NCBI GenBank assembly: GCA_016699955.1
Contig: CP064993.1
Location: forward strand, 930,001-962,000
DNA length: 32,000 nt
Direction: 5' to 3'
From: Candidatus Saccharimonadota bacterium
GTDB lineage: Bacteria; Patescibacteriota; Saccharimonadia; Saccharimonadales; UBA4665
Shown: in pieces, positions 1 to 31,152 of the stretch
Position numbering within the stretch: position 1 is the stretch's first letter
Layout: the number at the start of each line of letters is the position of its first letter
Program-made: the position numbers and the translations under genes
The notes under the pieces: model-generated
Databases searched by the model: none
The model's input: the letters and a program-made list of their open reading frames with translations, nothing else
What the model was told of the DNA's origin: nothing

Positions 1-201
1 GCTTAGCCGGCATATTTTGTTATACGCACCTCGGAGTTTGAAACTGTGCACTGGTTGCATATCTTCTCGCTTGAGATAAACGTGTGCGCCGAGCTGCCTG
101 CTCAGTTTTTGGGCTTTCTCGAGCGGAGTTTTTTGGGCGACATCGTACACGCGAGATGTCAGTACCTCGCGGACGATATCGTTGATAGTTGTTGGGCTCA
201 C
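1..201 (-). CDS. ilvA: threonine ammonia-lyase (threonine dehydratase), N-terminal 67 codons; the gene continues past the left edge
   Basis: Not in the ORF track because it runs off the edge. Manual minus-strand translation from GTG 201..199 gives VSPTTINDIVREVLTSRVYDVAQKTPLEKAQKLSRQLGAHVYLKREDMQPVHSFKLRGAYNKICRLS. It contains the PLP-lysine motif SFKLRGA of Thr/Ser dehydratases. The start overlaps the ridA stop (GTGA). Confidence 0.8.
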   Translation of the reverse strand, partial: MSPTTINDIVREVLTSRVYDVAQKTPLEKAQKLSRQLGAHVYLKREDMQPVHSFKLRGAYNKICRLS

Positions 202-9439: not shown

Positions 9440-9985
9440 CTAGACACGCTTTACTTGGAGGCTGTCGAGCTCTACTGGTGTTTCACGGCCAAACATATTG
9501 ACGAGTACTTTGAGCTTGCCTTTTTGTGCGTCTAGCTCGCTGACTGAGCCATCGAAACCTTTGAAAGGCCCGTCAATAATGCTGACAACTTCGCCGATGG
9601 CGTAATCAATCTTATGTTTTGGCTGTTCGAGACCCATGCGTTTCTGGATTTTCTCTATTTCGTCTTGGTCAACAGGCGTTGGTTCGGTGCCGCTCCCGAC
9701 AAACCCGGTAACAGAAGGAGTGTTGCGCACAATGTACCAAGCATCTTCGCTTAGTTTCATTTGCACAAGCACATAGCCTTGAAATATACGCTTCTCGACA
9801 ATTTTGCGTTTGCCGTTTTTGATTTCAATTTGCTTTTCTTTGGGCACGAGCGCTTGGAAAATCTTATCTTTCATGTCAAGTGACTCTGCTCGCTGGCGGA
9901 TGCTTTCGGCTACTTTTTCTTCGTACCCGCTGTACGTGTGGATGGCGTACCATTGTTTGCTTGTGTCGTAACGCTTGTTGCTCAT
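9440..9985 (-). CDS. nusG: transcription termination/antitermination factor NusG
   Basis: WYAIHTYSGYEEKV (NGN domain) and the KOW motif GEVVSIIDGPFKGFDGSV; 181 aa. Confidence 0.95.
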   Translation of the reverse strand: MSNKRYDTSKQWYAIHTYSGYEEKVAESIRQRAESLDMKDKIFQALVPKEKQIEIKNGKRKIVEKRIFQGYVLVQMKLSEDAWYIVRNTPSVTGFVGSGTEPTPVDQDEIEKIQKRMGLEQPKHKIDYAIGEVVSIIDGPFKGFDGSVSELDAQKGKLKVLVNMFGRETPVELDSLQVKRV

Positions 9986-9993
9986 AAAACTCC

Positions 9994-10395
9994 TTAATTC
10001 ACAAATAGCTGTTTGAATACTTTATCAAGACCATAATCTACCACCGCGATTATCAGACCAAACATAATTGAAAAAATAACAACGGCGGAGGTAAGACGCA
10101 CACTTTCCCGGAACGTTGGCCAGGTGACACCGCGCAACTCTTTCCAGCTGGCGCGTATATAAGTGAGCCCAAGTATACGCCAGAGTAGCTTGAAAGGCGG
10201 CAACTGTGCAACATAGCGCAAAACATGTCCGATATGTTTTAGCGGGAAATGGTGTGATAGCCATACCAGTGCGCGCCAGACAAGCCTAGCGGGCAAGAAA
10301 AAACCGCTCCAAAAAACTTGCGTAAGAGTTTGTTCCTGCGTTTGTTTACGTACCTTTTTTGCCACCGTTGTTCTCTCTTTCGAATGATTAGCCAT
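9994..10395 (-). CDS. secE: preprotein translocase subunit SecE (N-terminally extended, 133 aa)
   Basis: C-terminal SWKELRGVTWPTFRESVRLTSAVVIFSIMFGLIIAVVDYGLD matches the SecE core TM. Position directly upstream of nusG is conserved synteny. Confidence 0.8.
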   Translation of the reverse strand: MANHSKERTTVAKKVRKQTQEQTLTQVFWSGFFLPARLVWRALVWLSHHFPLKHIGHVLRYVAQLPPFKLLWRILGLTYIRASWKELRGVTWPTFRESVRLTSAVVIFSIMFGLIIAVVDYGLDKVFKQLFVN

Positions 10396-13465: not shown

Positions 13466-14197
13466 CTACTCTTCTAGGGGTTCGGTGGATGGCCGTGGAA
13501 TAAGCGCGGGCTGAATATGACGAACACGTTTGGCAATCATGCGGGCATCGGGAATCAGACTCTCAACTGCCTGCCAAAAAGCAGCGCTGTGATTCATATG
13601 CTGGGTATGTGCTAGCTCATGACATATAACATAATCGATCTGCTGCCAGCTGAGTTGCATAAGGAAAAGGTTTAACGTTATGTTGCCATTGCTGTCGCAG
13701 CTGCCCCAGCGACGTTTCAAATGTTTAATTGTCACGGTGCCGCACGTCAGCGAGTTTTTTTCGGCCTTTGCTTGTAACCGAGGCACCAGTAACACACGAG
13801 CTTCCTTTTTTAGGGCGCGTATAGCGGCTTGCTCGGCGCGCGTTTGCACCGCTTCTGAGGTGAGGGTTTCACCTGGGTGGTAATATATTATCAGTTTTGT
13901 CGCTGTTACGCGTGACTTCGCTTCACTTCGTTCTGGAATTTGCTCAAAATGCAGGTTATGTAGTTTTCCAATTTTGTCGCCCTCTTTCAAGGTTGTGGGA
14001 GTTGTTTTTGCAAGCTCAAGGCGAATCCAATCAGTGTGCTGGCGTACAAAAGTTACAGCAGTAAAATAGGGCGTCCAGCGTGGTAACGTCACGCGTACAC
14101 CGTGCGCAGTTACGCTTATACGTATTGATTTACTTTGAGCTGTTTTTGTAAATGAAACAAAGCCAATTTCGGGCACCTCAATAATTTTGGTGGCCAT
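13466..14197 (-). CDS. DUF45/YgjP-like (M48/SprT-like) zinc metallopeptidase
   Basis: RRWGSC....I.LN and the ICHELAHTQHMNHSAAFW (HExxH) arrangement typical of YgjP/DUF45; 243 aa. Confidence 0.8.
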   Translation of the reverse strand: MATKIIEVPEIGFVSFTKTAQSKSIRISVTAHGVRVTLPRWTPYFTAVTFVRQHTDWIRLELAKTTPTTLKEGDKIGKLHNLHFEQIPERSEAKSRVTATKLIIYYHPGETLTSEAVQTRAEQAAIRALKKEARVLLVPRLQAKAEKNSLTCGTVTIKHLKRRWGSCDSNGNITLNLFLMQLSWQQIDYVICHELAHTQHMNHSAAFWQAVESLIPDARMIAKRVRHIQPALIPRPSTEPLEE

Positions 14198-14859
14198 TAG
14201 CGGACGCTTATGTTGCGCCGAGACAGATCTACTCGACCGGCAGCAGGGTTTGGCACAATGTTGACAAGACCGGGTTTACTTAGCTGTGCTGGGGTGTTAT
14301 CGAGAGCTATCAACCGTTTTTCGACAAGGTAGCGAATAACAGCGTTTTTTTGAGTGTTAAAGACATGTTTACCGCTAAGAACAAGGTAGTTTTCGGTAAT
14401 TTCAGGGTTTTGCATGCCAGACATGAGCTCACGGAACGTTCCTGGCTCCATTTCTTGAGCGTAGTGGTCATCGTGTTTGCGGCGGTCGCGTTTGCTAGAG
14501 CGCTTAAAAGCCGAGTCTGGGTCAATTTGCAACCACAGCAAAATAGGATGAGCCGCGGCTTTGATAGCAAGATTTCTAAGGGCACGGCGCTGCGATAATC
14601 GCATAGCGTTTGTGTCGAAAACCACGCTGATCCCTGCCTGTAAGAATTCGCTGGTCATGTACGCCATCAGGCTGGCAACGATATGATTTTCTTCTTTGCT
14701 GTACGATGGATTTTCAAAAAGTTCATCCCGAATACGATCGCCTTGAACGTGGGCGGCCGCAAGTTGTTCGCAGAGTTGCCGCGAAAAAAATGTCTTGCCT
14801 GACCCGGGCATGCCATAAAGCATGATAAGCAGCGGTTTTGTCGGTTGTAATTTTACCAT
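14197..14859 (-). CDS. P-loop kinase-like ATP-binding protein (AAA_33/zeta-toxin-like fold)
   Basis: Walker A LYGMPGSGKTF followed by GDRIRDE. 220 aa. Stop overlaps the DUF45 ATG (TAATG). Confidence 0.7.
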   Translation of the reverse strand: MVKLQPTKPLLIMLYGMPGSGKTFFSRQLCEQLAAAHVQGDRIRDELFENPSYSKEENHIVASLMAYMTSEFLQAGISVVFDTNAMRLSQRRALRNLAIKAAAHPILLWLQIDPDSAFKRSSKRDRRKHDDHYAQEMEPGTFRELMSGMQNPEITENYLVLSGKHVFNTQKNAVIRYLVEKRLIALDNTPAQLSKPGLVNIVPNPAAGRVDLSRRNISVR

Positions 14860-14882: not shown

Positions 14883-14959
14883 TGGTGGGTGATGAGGGAC
14901 TCGAACCCCCGACCCTCTCGGTGTAAACGAGATGCTCTAGCCAACTGAGCTAATCACCC
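14883..14959 (-). tRNA. tRNA-Val (anticodon TAC), CCA encoded
   Basis: Reverse complement GGGTGATTAGCTCAGTTGGCTAGAGCATCTCGTTTACACCGAGAGGGTCGGGGGTTCGAGTCCCTCATCACCCACCA folds as a cloverleaf. Anticodon loop is TTTACAC. Confidence 0.9.
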
Positions 14960-14973
14960 GAATTGTGCTTCTG

Positions 14974-15059
14974 TGGTGCGGACGAGAGGACTTGAACCTC
15001 CACCCCTTGCAGGACTACCACCTCAAAGTAGCGCGTCTACCATTCCGCCACGTCCGCCC
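14974..15059 (-). tRNA. tRNA-Leu (anticodon GAG), long variable arm, CCA encoded
   Basis: Reverse complement GGGCGGACGTGGCGGAATGGTAGACGCGCTACTTTGAGGTGGTAGTCCTGCAAGGGGTGGAGGTTCAAGTCCTCTCGTCCGCACCA. Anticodon stem CTACT/GGTAG, loop TTGAGGT. Confidence 0.9.
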
Positions 15060-22479: not shown

Positions 22480-26084
<3,605 letters not shown>

Positions 26085-26783: not shown

Positions 26784-27068
26784 CCATTTGCGGCATCAGG
26801 CTTACGCTTAGCAGTAGTTCGTGCGCTTCATTGCGGCGTTTGAAACAAACACCTTAAAAATAAAAGGATTTGTGCCGGCAGCGCGTGCCACAGTATACAT
26901 GCGCTGAGCGGTCGTCTCTCATATGACGCTTCACCCGCCGCAGGGTGGGCGCGCACGAAGCGAAAACAGGTCCCAAGGGGATCTGTTTTCGGGTCAAATC
27001 AACCCACCTTTCTAGCGACTTAACTTGGCAGAAACTTCAGGACGGTTATTGAAGCTACCCTGATATAG

Positions 27069-27542
27069 CTACTTTTTCTCAGCCTGAGAAGATGGAAAGC
27101 TCTGAATATATGCATAGGCACGCTTCCAGGGGAGCTCGGGAAAATATTCTGGTCCGCGCAGATAGTTGGAATGTTTCAGATACTCAGGAAGGCCCTCCTT
27201 GATAACAATCCGCTCATAACTCCATCCGGGGTATTTTACTTTCGCAAATTCCTCATTGACCCGCAGCAAATCTTTTTCTAGAGACCACCCATTAAAATCG
27301 AACGCCCATGTTCCGTTGCCCGCATACATATGATTGCCCGGGAATTGGTCAGTAGGCTTAATAAAAACGAGGTCAAAGCCTTCCCCAGGATGAAGCGAGA
27401 GGAACATATGAGCTAAGATGTGACAGGCGCCTGCCGCGAAGAAAGACGTATCATCACGCTGCCAAGACAAAAACACATCTTTCGCTTCCTCGGGTGATCG
27501 CATATATTTTAGCGCTGGTTCTAGTTGTACGGCATACTTCAT
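27069..27542 (-). CDS. hypothetical 157-aa protein with Gln/Cys/His/Asp spacing like a papain-fold enzyme
   Basis: WQ28..AGAC40HILAH..GNH71MY..AFD82FNG. No family recognised; see findings. Confidence 0.5.
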   Translation of the reverse strand: MKYAVQLEPALKYMRSPEEAKDVFLSWQRDDTSFFAAGACHILAHMFLSLHPGEGFDLVFIKPTDQFPGNHMYAGNGTWAFDFNGWSLEKDLLRVNEEFAKVKYPGWSYERIVIKEGLPEYLKHSNYLRGPEYFPELPWKRAYAYIQSFPSSQAEKK

Positions 27543-27627
27543 TGATCCTATTATAACTATTTATCAAAGAAGGAGTCAGAATGAAAATCTTAACGTGAGG
27601 ACGTTTGTCGAACCCATTGTAATGTAG

Positions 27628-28350
27628 CTAGTTATTTGATGTGTCGGAATGGTTAATCCAGTTGGAAATTGCCTTCTGATAGTCGGAGAATTTGTCCTTG
27701 GGGTTACGTGGATCACTGAGCGCATGCCAGAAGCCTTCGGCAAGATATGTATTTGCAGAAAATGTTTTGATAAATGCGTCAGTTGTTTCAGCCGGTACAT
27801 ATTCGTCATGCTCGTGAATCATAACAAAGGTTCGTCCAGCAAACCTAGAGGCTCGAGCCAGGAGTGGATGATTCATAAGAGCCTCAACATCTTTACGGAA
27901 AACGTTCCGAGTCCAGTCACGATCTATATCGCGCCAAGTGGTATAAAAATCAGAAGGTTTATATATAGCAGGCGCTCGGAGAATAAGATTTGCGAAGACC
28001 CGGTACTTTGTAAGCTGCGTTGCGAGGAACCCGCCGTAGCTAGTGCCCATGACAGTTATTTCGGCTTCTGGGTATTTCTCATGCAACCAATCAAATACGT
28101 AGATAACTTCAAGGAAGTGCTGCGCAGGACGAGTGTCCTCAAGCCTAAACGGACTTTCACCGTGACCGGAGTAATCAAAGACGAGAGCGCTCATTCCGGT
28201 TCCGGCAACGATACTGCTAACAAGATCTACTTGGTTTGATTTCTTGGCGCTGTAACCATTAAGACTTAGCAATATTTTGTCGGTACTACCGCCATCATAC
28301 CAATCGGCCGCAACAGCATACCCGGTGCAATCTATTTGTATTCCATTCAT
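27628..28350 (-). CDS. alpha/beta-fold hydrolase
   Basis: Nucleophile elbow VMGTSYGGF, oxyanion region FDYSGHGES, late H (HEHDEYV / FWHAL); 240 aa. Confidence 0.8.
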   Translation of the reverse strand: MNGIQIDCTGYAVAADWYDGGSTDKILLSLNGYSAKKSNQVDLVSSIVAGTGMSALVFDYSGHGESPFRLEDTRPAQHFLEVIYVFDWLHEKYPEAEITVMGTSYGGFLATQLTKYRVFANLILRAPAIYKPSDFYTTWRDIDRDWTRNVFRKDVEALMNHPLLARASRFAGRTFVMIHEHDEYVPAETTDAFIKTFSANTYLAEGFWHALSDPRNPKDKFSDYQKAISNWINHSDTSNN

Positions 28351-28436
28351 ATTGCAATTCTAGCAAATTTTTCTCATGGGGTACAAAAATGCGAGCAAGT
28401 CTTTAAGCGGCGGTGACAAAAGCCAGGACTGCCGCT

Positions 28437-28973
28437 TTACAAAGATAGCAGTAATTTGAGCCGTGCAATTGTTTCTTCCGTTGATTCATTGGTCGTATCA
28501 ATAATAATCTCGGAAGAATTAAGCTCCTGGTGGACCCCGTTATACAGTTCTTCGAACTCTTTTGCTGGAACCGTGTACTCACGCATAGTATTGCGCCTAC
28601 GCAGTTCTTCTTTTTCGGCCGTTAGTACAATCGAGATTGCTTCAAAGCCATGCTGCTCTGCTAAATCCACCAGTTCTTTGGCGCTACCTTCAGGGGAAGA
28701 TTTATTATTCCACGTAAAAAGACCTTCGAGAACAATACTGTACATTCCGACTTCAAGGTATCTTTCGTATAGCATTCGAGTATTCTCATAAGCAAATCTA
28801 TGTTCATCGGAGCCGACCTCACTAACGGATCTACCGATGATATGGAATCCCCAACGAAACTTGTCTTCCTCTATTAAAACTACTGGTTTGGTCAGTAGTT
28901 TGGCTATCTCTGGTACAATCGTACTCTTTCCGCTGGCTGGTGCTCCCCTAAAGATTAGGACTTTTTGCATCAT
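28437..28973 (-). CDS. P-loop kinase-like ATP-binding protein (AAA_33-like)
   Basis: Walker A FRGAPASGKST; 178 aa. Second member of this fold in the window. Confidence 0.7.
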   Translation of the reverse strand: MMQKVLIFRGAPASGKSTIVPEIAKLLTKPVVLIEEDKFRWGFHIIGRSVSEVGSDEHRFAYENTRMLYERYLEVGMYSIVLEGLFTWNNKSSPEGSAKELVDLAEQHGFEAISIVLTAEKEELRRRNTMREYTVPAKEFEELYNGVHQELNSSEIIIDTTNESTEETIARLKLLLSL

Positions 28974-29032
28974 AGTTTCTACAGTAGCAAAAATAGTCCT
29001 CAGATAAAACTAGTGGGCTTAGTGAATATATG

Positions 29033-29090
29033 TGGCACGGGCACGTGGAATACTTTTGTATAGCCTTGCAGGGTGCTCGGAAACAATATT
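29033..29090 (+). repeat. copy A: displaced tRNA-Trp 3' end (18/19) plus a ~40-nt shared arm
   Basis: tggcacgggcacgtggaat versus the tRNA's tggcaggggcacgtggaat, followed by acttttgtatagccttgcagggtgctcggaaaca, which recurs at 30216..30250. Confidence 0.85.
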
Positions 29091-29093
29091 GAG

Positions 29094-29963
29094 CTATTCC
29101 CCTATTTTCCAAATACCTTTTTCGCGGAAGGCTGGTATCGTCTGTCGTTTTGCGGCGTTAAGTTGGCCGTTTGTTGTTAAATTACGTTGTTTTGCGTAAT
29201 CTGTTAACTTTACAATTTTCTGTCCCTTCAAATAGGCGATCCTCTTGTTTAACGATTCTTGCAGGGCAAGGGCAAACAATTCTGACATTCCGTCATAATC
29301 ATTTTTTTCTTGGTAACTAATAAACAATGGATAGTAGCTACTGTGCTTACCTTTGTTTCGGATTATGATTGGCGGGTACCCCAAGGCTGCTAACTGGACA
29401 TTAACCAATACCCTGCCTATACGACCATTTCCGTCACAGAAGGGATGAATATGCTCGAATTCCGCATGAAAACGTCCAATACTATCGACAAAGTATCGAC
29501 CGTGATCGCTCAAATAATCATCGATTAGGTCGTCCAGTAGCGCACTAACGTATTCTGGCGCTGGGGCGATATGCGAACCGACCCGTACATATTCGCCTTC
29601 TTTGCGCAATCTGCCTGCAATATTATCATTAATTCCACCAATTAGCATCTGATGCAACAGTAGTATATTCTCAGTGGATAGTTCGATATTTGGCCGAGTT
29701 GACAAATATTCCAGAACTCTAGCCAAGTTTTTTGCCTCAAAAAGCTCACGGACGGAAACATCGCGCATTACCTCTTGCTCAAGTATAATTCGTTCAGTTT
29801 CCTTCAATGTTAATGATGAGTTTTCTATGGCGTTTGAGTTATAGACTAATTCGGGCAGTTCTACCTCTCGTAGCAGCCCTAAAAGTGACTCTTTGCCGCC
29901 TTTACGCTGTTCGTATTCCTTCTTTAGAGTTCTTATCTTTGATTTTGTTAATTCGCTTATCAT
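29094..29963 (-). CDS. Fic-domain protein (class II: N-terminal inhibitory helix motif in the same polypeptide)
   Basis: Fic motif HPFCDGNGRIGR. Upstream SNAIEN fits (S/T)xxxE(G/N). ATG at 29963 is preferred over the track TTG at 29999, which is itself the -35 box. Confidence 0.9.
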   Translation of the reverse strand: MISELTKSKIRTLKKEYEQRKGGKESLLGLLREVELPELVYNSNAIENSSLTLKETERIILEQEVMRDVSVRELFEAKNLARVLEYLSTRPNIELSTENILLLHQMLIGGINDNIAGRLRKEGEYVRVGSHIAPAPEYVSALLDDLIDDYLSDHGRYFVDSIGRFHAEFEHIHPFCDGNGRIGRVLVNVQLAALGYPPIIIRNKGKHSSYYPLFISYQEKNDYDGMSELFALALQESLNKRIAYLKGQKIVKLTDYAKQRNLTTNGQLNAAKRQTIPAFREKGIWKIGE

Positions 29964-29970
29964 GCTATTG

Positions 29971-29999
29971 ATTGTACCGAATTCACGTATTATTGTCAA
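29971..29999 (-). promoter_or_regulatory. near-consensus promoter TTGACA-17 nt-TACAAT, 7 nt upstream of the Fic ATG (leaderless)
   Basis: Minus strand: TTGACA 29999..29994, TACAAT 29976..29971, ATG 29963..29961. Confidence 0.6.
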
Positions 30000-30010
30000 T
30001 AACGCGTGAA
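29982..30010. promoter_or_regulatory. 29-bp imperfect palindrome TTCACGnnTTATTG-t-CAATAAnnCGTGAA over the Fic -35/spacer; third half-site at 30033..30045
   Basis: Read directly. 12 of 14 positions per arm are symmetric. TTCACGATTATT repeats 45 nt upstream. Confidence 0.6.
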
Positions 30011-30196
30011 TATGTAGTAAAATCCAGACAGATTCACGATTATTCCGCTAAAAGTGGTTCAGCCGAGACCCGAAACATGACCGGGGGTTAGGAACCAAAG
30101 GTATTTAACACAAATAGTTTTGACAAATATATCGGAGCAGATTGCATGCAGAAAAACCGGTCATATTTTTTTCTGTTATTCAAATCTTATTAAGCT

Positions 30197-30311
30197 TGGT
30201 AGCGGCATGTGGAATACTTTGTATAGCCTTGCATTGGGCTCGGAATACATTCCTGTGCGCAGTGCTACGTTATCGAACCACGATCTACACTCACTTCGTT
30301 CGCTAGACCTT
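30197..30311 (-). pseudogene. copy B: decayed tRNA-Trp pseudogene with a 58-nt insertion in the T-loop
   Basis: tggtagcggcatgtggaat (16/19), a 58-nt insert (30216..30273), then cgaaccacgatcta (14/14, equal to 31097..31110), plus an AAGGTCT anticodon-stem remnant at 30305..30311. No 5' half. Confidence 0.7.
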
Positions 30312-30373
30312 GGTCAGACTTCAAAAGCTCTATCAATGTAAAACGACCAATCTTGCGACTGGCCGTTTTACAT

Positions 30374-30390
30374 TGGCAGGGGTATGCGGA
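30374..30390 (+). repeat. copy C: third degenerate copy of the tRNA-Trp 3' end (14/17), abutted by a 10-bp-stem hairpin at 30336..30373
   Basis: tggcaggggtatgcgga versus tggcaggggcacgtgga. Adjacent hairpin ATGTAAAACG..CGTTTTACAT. Confidence 0.55.
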
Positions 30391-30480
30391 CGCATTTCAA
30401 ACGGCAGCCATTAATACCGGTGACGATTCTAAGCTCAAATACTTAGTCACATCATTTAGTTTGTCGGGCGACCTGCTGTA

Positions 30481-31017
30481 CTAAGGTCCATCATGCCTGA
30501 ATGTGGGAGCAAATAATCTCGGTGTATGTTTAAACGAATCTACAAATTTTCCTATTTCATCAGTGTGTATCACATGATTGGTGGTTGTCGGTATTGCCGA
30601 AGATATTAACGTCGAGCCATTCAGCTGAGTAACTTCATATCTACTTATTTTGCCGTAATCCACCGAATGACAAAGTCGGTAATGTCTCTGGTGCGGAGAA
30701 ACAAACAGACTGCAAGTAAAATTAGTGCTGGTAGCATCATAGTTCCCTTTGGCGGCAGGTAATGTGGTGCTTCGTGTTTGCGATTGCTGTATTTCATAGA
30801 CCCAGTCTTCAGTTGTAAAATTAAGTTCTGTAAATACGTCAGCCTTAGTTGCCGTCACACGAACATCTTTTATAGAAATGCCTGAGGGTAAGTACGTTGG
30901 CTTTAGGTAACTAAATACCAGTACACCGCCACTAAGCTTGAATAGAATACCGACAATTACCACAACTATAATCAAGATAAAAAGGAGAATTTTCTTTGAC
31001 TTTTCTGAGTGCGACAT
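30481..31017 (-). CDS. hypothetical membrane-anchored protein (178 aa from ATG 31017)
   Basis: MSHSEKSKKILLFILIIVVVIVGILF.. single N-terminal TM, then a Thr/Ser-rich soluble domain. No recognisable family. Confidence 0.55.
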   Translation of the reverse strand: MSHSEKSKKILLFILIIVVVIVGILFKLSGGVLVFSYLKPTYLPSGISIKDVRVTATKADVFTELNFTTEDWVYEIQQSQTRSTTLPAAKGNYDATSTNFTCSLFVSPHQRHYRLCHSVDYGKISRYEVTQLNGSTLISSAIPTTTNHVIHTDEIGKFVDSFKHTPRLFAPTFRHDGP

Positions 31018-31031
31018 CACTTTATAATACC

Positions 31032-31060
31032 AAAACAAAAAAGAACTTCCGAAGAAGTCC
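31032..31060 (-). terminator. intrinsic terminator downstream of tRNA-Trp
   Basis: Minus strand GGACTTC-TTCG-GAAGTTC followed by TTTTTTGTTTT. One stem position is G-U on the minus strand but A-C on the plus strand, supporting minus-sense function. Confidence 0.75.
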
Positions 31061-31077
31061 TTTTAGCATAAGCGATT

Positions 31078-31152
31078 TGGCAGGGGCACGTGGAATCGAA
31101 CCACGATCTAAGGTTTTGGAGACCTTTATACTAACCGTTGTACTATGCCCCT
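31078..31152 (-). tRNA. tRNA-Trp (anticodon CCA), CCA encoded
   Basis: Reverse complement AGGGGCATAGTACAACGGTTAGTATAAAGGTCTCCAAAACCTTAGATCGTGGTTCGATTCCACGTGCCCCTGCCA. Anticodon stem AAGGT/ACCTT, loop CTCCAAA. Confidence 0.9.

Follow-up and report, generated by a model that had tools for sequence, protein, structure and literature searches.

A candidate array of small modules stacked behind a tRNA-Trp gene and bounded by tRNA-derived repeats in a Saccharibacteria genome

Islands anchored at transfer RNA (tRNA) or transfer-messenger RNA (tmRNA) genes include the tycheposons of Prochlorococcus (10.1101/2020.12.28.424599) and the ssrA islands of Dehalococcoides (PMC3146451). Their elements encode a tyrosine or large serine recombinase of their own, often carry replication genes, and range from several kb to tens of kb in length (10.1101/2020.12.28.424599, PMC3146451). 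A 32,000-nucleotide stretch of a Saccharibacteria genome (contig CP064993.1, positions 930,001 to 962,000), referred to here as the window, contains an array of small modules behind its tRNA-Trp gene. The array resembles these islands in its apparent integration into the 3' part of a tRNA, its direct repeats of partial tRNA between units, the inferred displacement of older units by newer ones, its accessory and defence cargo, and its small, streamlined genome. It has an intact tRNA and no integrase of its own. Unlike the islands, the modules are only 0.2–1.5 kb in length and carry one or two genes, with no recombinase in six arrays. We favor, with modest confidence, site-specific integration into the 3' half of the tRNA, in which small non-autonomous modules would be stacked by a recombinase encoded elsewhere.

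Cis-mobilizable elements (CIMEs) are derivatives of conjugative elements found in Streptococcus and are usually single, several kb in length, and associated with an identified helper. Together with other non-autonomous integrated elements, they share with the present modules att-like boundaries, the absence of integrase and other recombination genes, a (here predicted) dependence on recombination in trans, and tandem accretion (PMC5704250). They differ from the arrays described here, which contain up to seven tiny modules and have no known helper.

Integron arrays and clusters of attC sites lacking integron-integrases (CALIN) also consist of small, mostly one-gene modules with one site each in the same direction, take in new modules at a fixed anchor, and frequently carry toxin–antitoxin cargo (PMC4889954, PMC2727003). 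Small modules with one site each in a single orientation are present both in the window and in L116 (L-numbered names, L001 to L116, denote the loci or contigs of related Saccharibacteria used for comparison). In contrast to integrons, the sites here are tRNA-derived and lack a GTTRRRY core, the modules are anchored at a tRNA gene instead of at attI next to intI, individual promoters serve several of the cargo genes, and the cargo is found in both orientations. The tRNA is flanked by a PF20603 hydrolase on one side and by the array on the other, with no intI at either. No attC was recognized; module boundaries fall at ...CTGCCA, and the R-type sites (described below) fold no better than shuffled sequence (z-scores of −0.6 to +1.3), so that they look like sites for a double-strand recombinase and not like hairpin-forming attC sites. 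In how it works the array is like that of an integron, yet it lacks intI and attC, the features by which an integron is defined.

The dif modules of Acinetobacter are likewise small, contain one gene or a toxin–antitoxin pair, have no recombinase inside, and are thought to be moved by XerC/XerD encoded elsewhere (PMC6449649, PMC13141974). They lie on plasmids between 28-bp XerC/XerD sites of alternating orientation. The array described here lies on the chromosome, and its sites are not of this kind but are direct repeats derived from the tRNA 3' half.

The array stretches from the 3' end of tRNA-Trp toward lower coordinates, beginning immediately after the CCA. It occupies an island of approximately 4 kb (27023-31077) composed of five modules, which are listed with their genes and sites in Table 1. 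GC (guanine plus cytosine) content is 0.428 within the island and 0.484 in the remainder of the window, in line with the AT-richness that the original prediction, made from the sequence alone, had judged by eye. That prediction described single-gene modules bounded by three copies of the tRNA end, named A, B, and C. The array it described is real, and is larger, with five modules and two further sites (27598-27637 and 27023-27083).

The 19-mer TGGCAGGGGCACGTGGAAT at the 3' end of tRNA-Trp, searched with up to three mismatches, has three matches in 32 kb, compared with 0.02 expected from shuffles. These are the tRNA itself (31078), site A (29033, one mismatch), and unit B (30197, three mismatches, 16/19). 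Site C (30374-30390) matches tRNA-Trp at 14 of 17 positions, and approximately 0.01 chance matches of this quality were estimated for the 4-kb island. The arm and remnant of site C recur at the orthologous place in L084, L086, and L082, which supports the site. All three predicted recurrences of the tRNA end were thus recovered, as was the arm common to A and B (29055-29082 and 30218-30245; 28 nucleotides, 89% identity). Fic is indeed the only gene between A and B, and a gene for a 178-amino-acid protein the only one between C and the tRNA.

The two additional sites were located with a hidden Markov model (HMM) built only from repeats R1 to R5 of L116 (described below), with E-values calculated over 1.6 Mb. 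Both lie directly after a stop codon (that of the 157-amino-acid gene and that of the alpha/beta hydrolase) and in tRNA orientation. Site 27598-27637 aligns to the 3' half of the canonical tRNA-Trp with a five-nucleotide gap in the T-loop (arm-shuffle p of approximately 0.01). The outermost site is located where the tRNA 3' end meets the conserved flank in L003. All five window sites are on the minus strand, the orientation of the tRNA. Direct alignment of the other intergenic regions to the tRNA gave no further remnants, and the two R-type sites surfaced only with the L116 profile. Rfam, at both the gathering threshold and E ≤ 10, reports nothing at A, B, and C but the tRNA itself.

The 178-amino-acid gene has five homologues of 60–85% identity. 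The four whose context was read all lie directly 3' of tRNA-Trp and are followed by the arm TTTGAAATGCG and the 17-nucleotide tRNA remnant. The module has identical boundaries in the window, L084, L086, and L082, and contains approximately 60 and 90 nucleotides of noncoding DNA. In blastn comparisons of the window with L084 and L086, homology starts at the tRNA and stops precisely at 30374, where the CCA of site C has its last A; farther on, the genes differ. L084 has a tRNA of another allele, yet its distal remnant matches the window-type tRNA at 16 of 17 positions and fits its own T-stem less well. Such a difference would be expected if exchange took place in the common TACCCCTGCCA.

The Fic operator and open reading frame (ORF) form a block that is conserved in L087, L090, L092, and L093 and accompanies the gene from genome to genome. 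Between the window and L087, homology covers only this block (30019->29095). In L087, Fic is behind a window-type tRNA-Trp and is bracketed by remnants. In L090 (9750-10984), Fic lies directly 3' of tRNA-Gln, and after it comes an arm-like site whose last nucleotides, TGCCCAGCCA, copy the 3' end of the L090 tRNA-Gln at 9 of 10 positions. This suggests that variants of the site family exist for other tRNAs.

L116 has the same chromosomal locus as the window, and its tRNA-Trp is 100% identical. Behind this tRNA are 7.3 kb containing seven modules of 0.6–1.5 kb, followed by pgl. Five modules end in a 53-nucleotide repeat, AAAAACATACTACACCACAATAGGTTCGGTAATCGTCCTGGAGCCCCTGCCAA, which finishes in CCCCTGCCA. 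These repeats (R1 to R5) are 64–94% identical, with R2 to R4 being 87–94% identical, and are spaced 600–1504 nucleotides apart. All are on the tRNA strand, and the cargo genes point both ways. The last modules are closed by two weaker copies of the repeat. The repeat profile also finds the site following Fic in L087 (E 1e-6). There is no recombinase gene in the L116 array or within 10 kb on either side.

This array bears on the possibility of ordinary decay, in which the modules would be leftovers of integrase-bearing elements or prophages stacked in tRNA-Trp, with the integrases and most of the cargo deleted. Integration into a tRNA 3' half, direct repeats of partial tRNA, and tandem stacking form the classical pattern of such elements, decay would be the process known from tRNA-linked genomic islands at large, and deletion pressure on Saccharibacteria genomes is strong. 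For the tycheposons, islands are reported to contain scattered partial tRNAs and degenerate elements (10.1101/2020.12.28.424599). Some window sites are degraded, namely B (16/19), the 27598 site, which is without its 3' part, and the outermost site, which ends in TTTCTGCCA. An insertion in L112 (described below) may also be an integrase-bearing element. Set against this are the five consecutive L116 modules with intact ORFs and well-kept sites, which random deletion should not yield, and the 178-amino-acid module, with so little noncoding DNA and the same boundaries in four lineages. In addition, none of the six arrays (window, L116, L087, L090, L111, and the L082/L084/L086 group) has an integrase or a listed fragment of one. 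We consider decay a possible but rather unlikely source of the modules.

The common site type, that of R2, can be aligned with the canonical Saccharibacteria tRNA-Trp over the tRNA 3' half (AGGTTCG..GTCCTG..CCCCTGCCA), the T-loop being expanded by five nucleotides in the site. A conserved arm of approximately 22 nucleotides precedes the tRNA-like part. R5 of L116, unlike the R2 type, aligns to the tRNA allele of the window. All sites found lie 3' of tRNA genes and share the tRNA orientation, which is not the distribution of a generic dispersed repeat, the outcome that the original prediction had named as fatal to it. Sites derived from the canonical allele occur behind the other tRNA allele, and exchange is therefore confined to the last ~10 nucleotides common to both if the tRNA is to stay intact. 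For at least one site class, the commonest, the putative crossover lies in the last ~10 nucleotides of the tRNA, GCCCCTGCCA. Insertion had been predicted at the T-loop and acceptor region; the tRNA 3' half holds as the target, and for this site class the T-loop does not hold as the point of exchange.

The LigA protein of the window is 67–80% identical to the LigA of 80 Saccharibacteria genomes, and an ancestral gene order of ligA, ham1, a membrane-protein gene, a noncoding element, tRNA-Trp, pgl, gnd, and zwf is kept in L001, L003, L005, L111, and L116. In none of the 80 relatives was any of the five island genes found within 10 kb of ligA; the island is strain-specific. The closest relative found is L111, whose membrane protein is 84% identical to that of the window. 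The tRNA-Trp of L111, nearly identical to that of the window and oriented alike, is separated from the noncoding element by one gene, of 96 amino acids. L112 comes from another sample, together with three more contigs like it. Over 11,274 nucleotides it does not differ from L111; the two then become unrelated (24% identity) immediately past TGGCAGGGGC, which forms the final 10 nucleotides of the tRNA. The two differ by a presence/absence polymorphism with one exchange point in GCCCCTGCCA, in agreement with the exchange placed in the last ~10 nucleotides from the sites. The 15-mer CTGGAGCCCCTGCCA at the L112 junction is also the end of R2 in L116 and of the site following Fic in L087. The strain comparison that had been proposed as a check thus shows the predicted polymorphism, and L111 and L112 contradict the idea that all relatives share one arrangement.

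The same junction bears on a mechanism without a dedicated recombinase, in which the repeats would serve as homology anchors for RecA-dependent recombination after DNA uptake, or would arise by slippage or segmental duplication. The R sites offer approximately 50 nucleotides of homology, many Saccharibacteria encode DNA-uptake genes, and the GGAAT at the left edge of site A suggests, by eye, an illegitimate junction. The L111/L112 junction, however, has only 10 nucleotides in common with the tRNA, too short for efficient homologous recombination. The sites are in one orientation and end precisely at CCA, and canonical-allele sites behind the other allele confine exchange to the same short segment. 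Homology-driven accumulation is accordingly given a low probability.

Under site-specific integration, each module would arrive as circular DNA with one attachment site, composed of a tRNA-Trp 3'-half copy of approximately 30 nucleotides (T-arm to CCA, with a small T-loop indel) and a conserved arm of approximately 20–25 nucleotides. A site-specific recombinase, most likely a tyrosine recombinase, would join this site to the tRNA gene, with exchange in GCCCCTGCCA for the commonest site class. The tRNA would be rebuilt, the new module would lie directly after the CCA, and a copy of the site would remain at the far end of the module. Later arrivals would displace earlier modules outward to give the order tRNA, module-site, module-site, and so on, with all sites oriented like the tRNA regardless of cargo direction. 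Lacking a recombinase, the modules would need one supplied by a helper element or by another part of the genome. The sites, their orientation, the exact boundaries of the modules, presence or absence in relatives, the strain-level insertion at the predicted junction, and the lack of recombinase genes in and around six arrays are observed; the circularity of the incoming DNA, the type of recombinase, and its supply in trans belong to the proposed model. Repeated insertion and cassette-like accumulation, both anticipated in the original prediction, fit the comparative data, which favor cassette-like accumulation.

Several results weigh against this reading. As originally noted, no recombinase is evident: none of the 28 window ORFs has a recombinase domain in Pfam, and no tyrosine recombinase occurs within 31 kb upstream in the window or within 10 kb of either side in L116 and L111. 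Phage_integrase, Resolvase, and Recombinase are listed for no called gene in L082 to L116. No recombinase was identified in the window or the compared loci, the rest of the source genome being outside the search. Neither a circular form nor a free site copy turned up. Viral-contig scans gave nothing relevant and no candidate phage bearing an attachment site (attP): the A/B arm pattern has 0 matches, and the tRNA 3'-end and R-site patterns have 0, 12 (all in one unrelated phage gene), and 0 matches. The L112 insertion is visible for only 96 nucleotides and could be a large integrase-bearing element. Within the window, the two R-type sites are weak matches (E 1.4e-3 and 0.049), and the placement of site C in the R family comes from an alignment and an HMM that contained C, which is circular. 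Neither tRNA alignment nor the L116 repeat profile detects a site between the kinase and hydrolase genes, which are counted as one module for that reason. The conserved block of tRNA and 178-amino-acid gene could reflect vertical inheritance rather than movement. The Fic modules differ in flanks and site types across genomes, and their boundaries are less regular than those of integrons.

Table 1. Coordinates of the array, its sites and cargo, and related features (window positions unless a locus is named).
Feature	Coordinates	Strand	Description
tRNA-Trp(CCA)	31078-31152	minus	ARAGORN; Rfam tRNA, 66 bits; unusual allele; anchor of the array
Module 1	30374-31077		178-amino-acid gene and site C
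Terminator-like hairpin and T-run	31034-31064	minus	Directly after tRNA; left end of module 1; read from sequence
Module 1 cargo	30481-31017	minus	178-amino-acid protein with N-terminal hydrophobic stretch; ORF
Site C, end of module 1	30374-30433	minus	tRNA-like 17 nucleotides TCCGCATACCCCTGCCA at 30374-30390; arm ...GCCGTTTGAAATGCG before
Module 2	30197-30373		Hairpin and unit B; no ORF
Hairpin with 19-nucleotide arms	30334-30375		Arms 89% complementary
Unit B, no ORF	30197-30318	minus	Inverted copy of T-arm 5' half, 17-nucleotide loop, TAGATCGTGGTTCGAT, 58-nucleotide insert, ATTCCACATGCCGCTACCA
Module 3	29033-30196		Fic and site A
Module 3 cargo	29094-30060	minus	Fic ORF 29094-29963 (PF02661, E 1e-18); promoter/palindromic operator ~29964-30060
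Site A, end of module 3	29033-29090	minus	3' ~57 nucleotides of a B-type unit: TTCCGAGC...GCAAGGCTATACAAAAGT and ATTCCACGTGCCCGTGCCA
Module 4	27594-29032		Kinase, hydrolase, and site
Module 4, first gene	28437-28973	minus	P-loop kinase (AAA_33/zeta-toxin-like); PF13671 1e-9, PF06414 7e-6
Module 4, second gene	27628-28350	minus	Alpha/beta hydrolase; PF12146 1e-11, PF00561
R-type site, end of module 4	27598-27637	minus	CTAGCTACATTACAATGGGTTCGACAAACGTCCT...; tRNA-like 3' part decayed; L116-profile E 0.049
Module 5	27023-27593		157-amino-acid gene and site
Module 5 cargo	27069-27542	minus	157-amino-acid protein; ORF
Outermost R-type site, distal array end	27023-27083	minus	…GTAGCTATATCAGGGTAGCTTCAATAACCGTCCTGAAGTTTCTGCCAAGT; L116-profile E 1.4e-3
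Structured noncoding element with own terminator	26838-26995	plus	Chromosomal flank outside the array; marks ancestral boundary
Noncoding element copies	L001 13292-13456; L003 8302-8449; L111 10715-10908; L116 10720-10905; others
Fic operator region in relatives	L087 4040-4121; L090, L092, L093 each 9925-10000
L116 cargo 1-3			Short-chain dehydrogenase; Fic; Fic_N-Fic on other strand
L116 cargo 4-7			ParE/antitoxin pair on other strand; 175-amino-acid protein; APH-type kinase; second antitoxin/ParE pair

Module 2 has no ORF and contains unit B. The segment TAGATCGTGGTTCGAT in this unit corresponds to tRNA positions 43–58. Within the unit, ATCGAACCACGATCTA (30272-30287) is identical at 16 of 16 positions to 31095-31110 of the tRNA T-arm 5' half and lies 56 nucleotides from the 19-mer of B. 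Resumption of tRNA homology in B had been predicted with a length of 14/14; the resumption is confirmed and its length corrected to 16/16. In L005, two tandem units directly after an identical tRNA-Trp are homologous to B over approximately 125 nucleotides, including the non-tRNA parts. The 16/16 identity to the T-arm 5' half is kept in two of the three units, and an inverted repeat of this half is present in all three. The insert is 58–63 nucleotides in length across copies and holds a CACAGG-hairpin-CCGAG motif. Its hairpin has 4–5 base pairs with two compensatory pair changes (GGAAT/ATTCC, GGAGT/ACTCC, and GGTG/CACC). On these alignments, unit B is placed in a family of composite units of approximately 125 nucleotides.

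An HMM of the unit, run over 116 loci, finds only B, the partial copy A, and the two tandem L005 copies. The unit pattern has 0 matches in viral contigs and one chance-looking match in metagenome contigs (L081, which has a high GC content and no tRNA). Site A is matched by the HMM at 29082->29033 (E 2e-4), and A and B together form a direct repeat of approximately 57 nucleotides flanking Fic. The left edge of site A falls, by eye, on a GGAAT common to the Fic stop region and the unit hairpin, which suggests a deletion or illegitimate junction.

Two identities were considered for unit B and rejected. An intron-containing tRNA or simple pseudogene does not fit, as the sequence upstream of position 43 is the common non-tRNA sequence and the inverted T-arm half. 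The acceptor 5' strand, D arm, and anticodon arm are not found upstream in unit B, and neither ARAGORN nor Rfam calls a tRNA. The earlier view of B as a tRNA-Trp pseudogene with a T-loop insertion is replaced by the unit family, which occurs twice in L005. The AAGGTCT that had been taken for an anticodon-stem remnant is more likely part of the inverted T-arm 5'-half repeat. An IS110-type bridge RNA was also rejected, as the 16–19-nucleotide matching segments far exceed bridge-RNA guides and no such transposase is present.

Rather than a scar of recombination, unit B could be a functional small RNA or structured element derived from tRNA-Trp, with Fic inserted into its 3' part much as integrating elements enter tRNA genes. 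The homology of the three units over their length, the retention of 16/16 T-arm identity in two copies, and the compensatory changes in the hairpin are consistent with this. The L005 units also have fold z-scores of −2.4 and −2.5, and the A/B repeat surrounds Fic as if an inserted element had restored the 3' end of the unit. Against these points, there are only three copies and the metagenome scan gave no further members. The units have no Rfam match and no evident promoter, the window copy folds like shuffled sequence (z-score of −0.96), and the predicted folds differ among copies. We regard this explanation as highly improbable.

The hairpin in module 2 (30334-30375) looks, by eye, like the terminator after the identical tRNA-Trp in L005 (15660-15700), and it probably served as the tRNA terminator before module 1 displaced it. 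The terminator sequence now following the tRNA (31034-31064) is also found after tRNA-Trp in L084 and L086, both of which have the 178-amino-acid gene. It is absent from L005, L111, and L116, all of which lack this gene.

The window tRNA-Trp is 100% identical to those of L005 (15585-15659) and L116 (10967-11041). The membrane proteins of these two loci are 67% identical to that of the window and fall in two other clades. The closer relatives L001 to L003 have a very different tRNA-Trp allele at the same locus (L001 14695-14770, L003 8491-8566). As the loci sharing the allele belong to other clades, the tRNA-Trp allele does not follow host phylogeny. Orientation of the tRNA and array also varies between the same flanks, being minus in the window and L111 and plus in L005 and L116. 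Between L001, which has tRNA-Trp on the plus strand, and L003, which has it on the minus strand, almost nothing else differs at the locus. From this pattern, the tRNA gene has apparently been exchanged or inverted together with the array.

In L082, tRNA-Trp and the 178-amino-acid block are at another chromosomal place, between a kinase and rpmG. A gene block of secE, glycosyltransferase, histidine kinase, YgjP, and AAA_33 kinase is followed in the window (14197-14859) by tRNA-Val/tRNA-Leu (14883-15057). The same block in L082 (9084-9958) is followed by tRNA-Trp and the 178-amino-acid module. The comparison places the tRNA-Trp block at different chromosomal positions in different lineages.

The cargo is accessory and consists of Fic, toxin–antitoxin pairs, kinases, hydrolases, and small membrane proteins. 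The Fic protein matches the PADLOC candidate defence families PDC-S04 and SoFic. The 178-amino-acid protein has no match in the Pfam, NCBIfam, or PADLOC scans, and the 157-amino-acid protein matches no family. The Fic promoter region (29964-30060) contains three copies of CGTGAATTT/AAATTCACG in palindromic arrangement, presumably an autoregulatory operator. In L093, the sequence GGTTCGCTTCCACGTAGG (9519-9536) lies between tRNA-Glu and an 82-amino-acid ORF upstream of Fic. It resembles the T-arm of the window-type tRNA-Trp, unlike the local tRNA-Glu, and may be a remnant carried along with the module.

Beside the island, a conserved noncoding element of approximately 160 nucleotides separates the membrane-protein gene from the tRNA-Trp locus; more than 15 Saccharibacteria have it at this place. 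In the consensus fold, the nine-base-pair helix that closes the structure (UUCGUGCGC/GCGCACGAA) is invariant, and compensatory changes occur in the helices inside it. The element matches no Rfam family and is probably an undescribed small RNA. All relatives keep a 343-amino-acid protein (22480-23511, plus strand) whose gene extends over the beginning of ligA and which has no Pfam or NCBIfam match. It was considered as a hidden recombinase and rejected, since it has no match to a family in either database and is conserved in relatives without arrays.

To our knowledge, Saccharibacteria have very small genomes with few recognized mobile elements, and their exchange of accessory and defence genes is poorly understood. 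More tentatively than integration itself, the arrays may represent a hitherto undescribed cassette-capture system of Saccharibacteria, in which a chromosomal recombinase unlinked to the arrays would insert and excise one-gene circles by way of a tRNA-derived site of approximately 50 nucleotides. Equally tentative is the corresponding view of tRNA-Trp, or tRNA-Gln elsewhere, as the constant point of entry of a functional integron analogue that arose independently in these ultra-small episymbiotic bacteria. If correct, this would be a compact route of gene gain and loss, polymorphic between strains and present in several lineages, and a second, independently evolved solution to the task performed by integrons. 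The conserved site of approximately 50 nucleotides would provide a search key for arrays and their cargo (Fic, ParE, and kinases) in metagenomes, and a concrete substrate for finding the recombinase.

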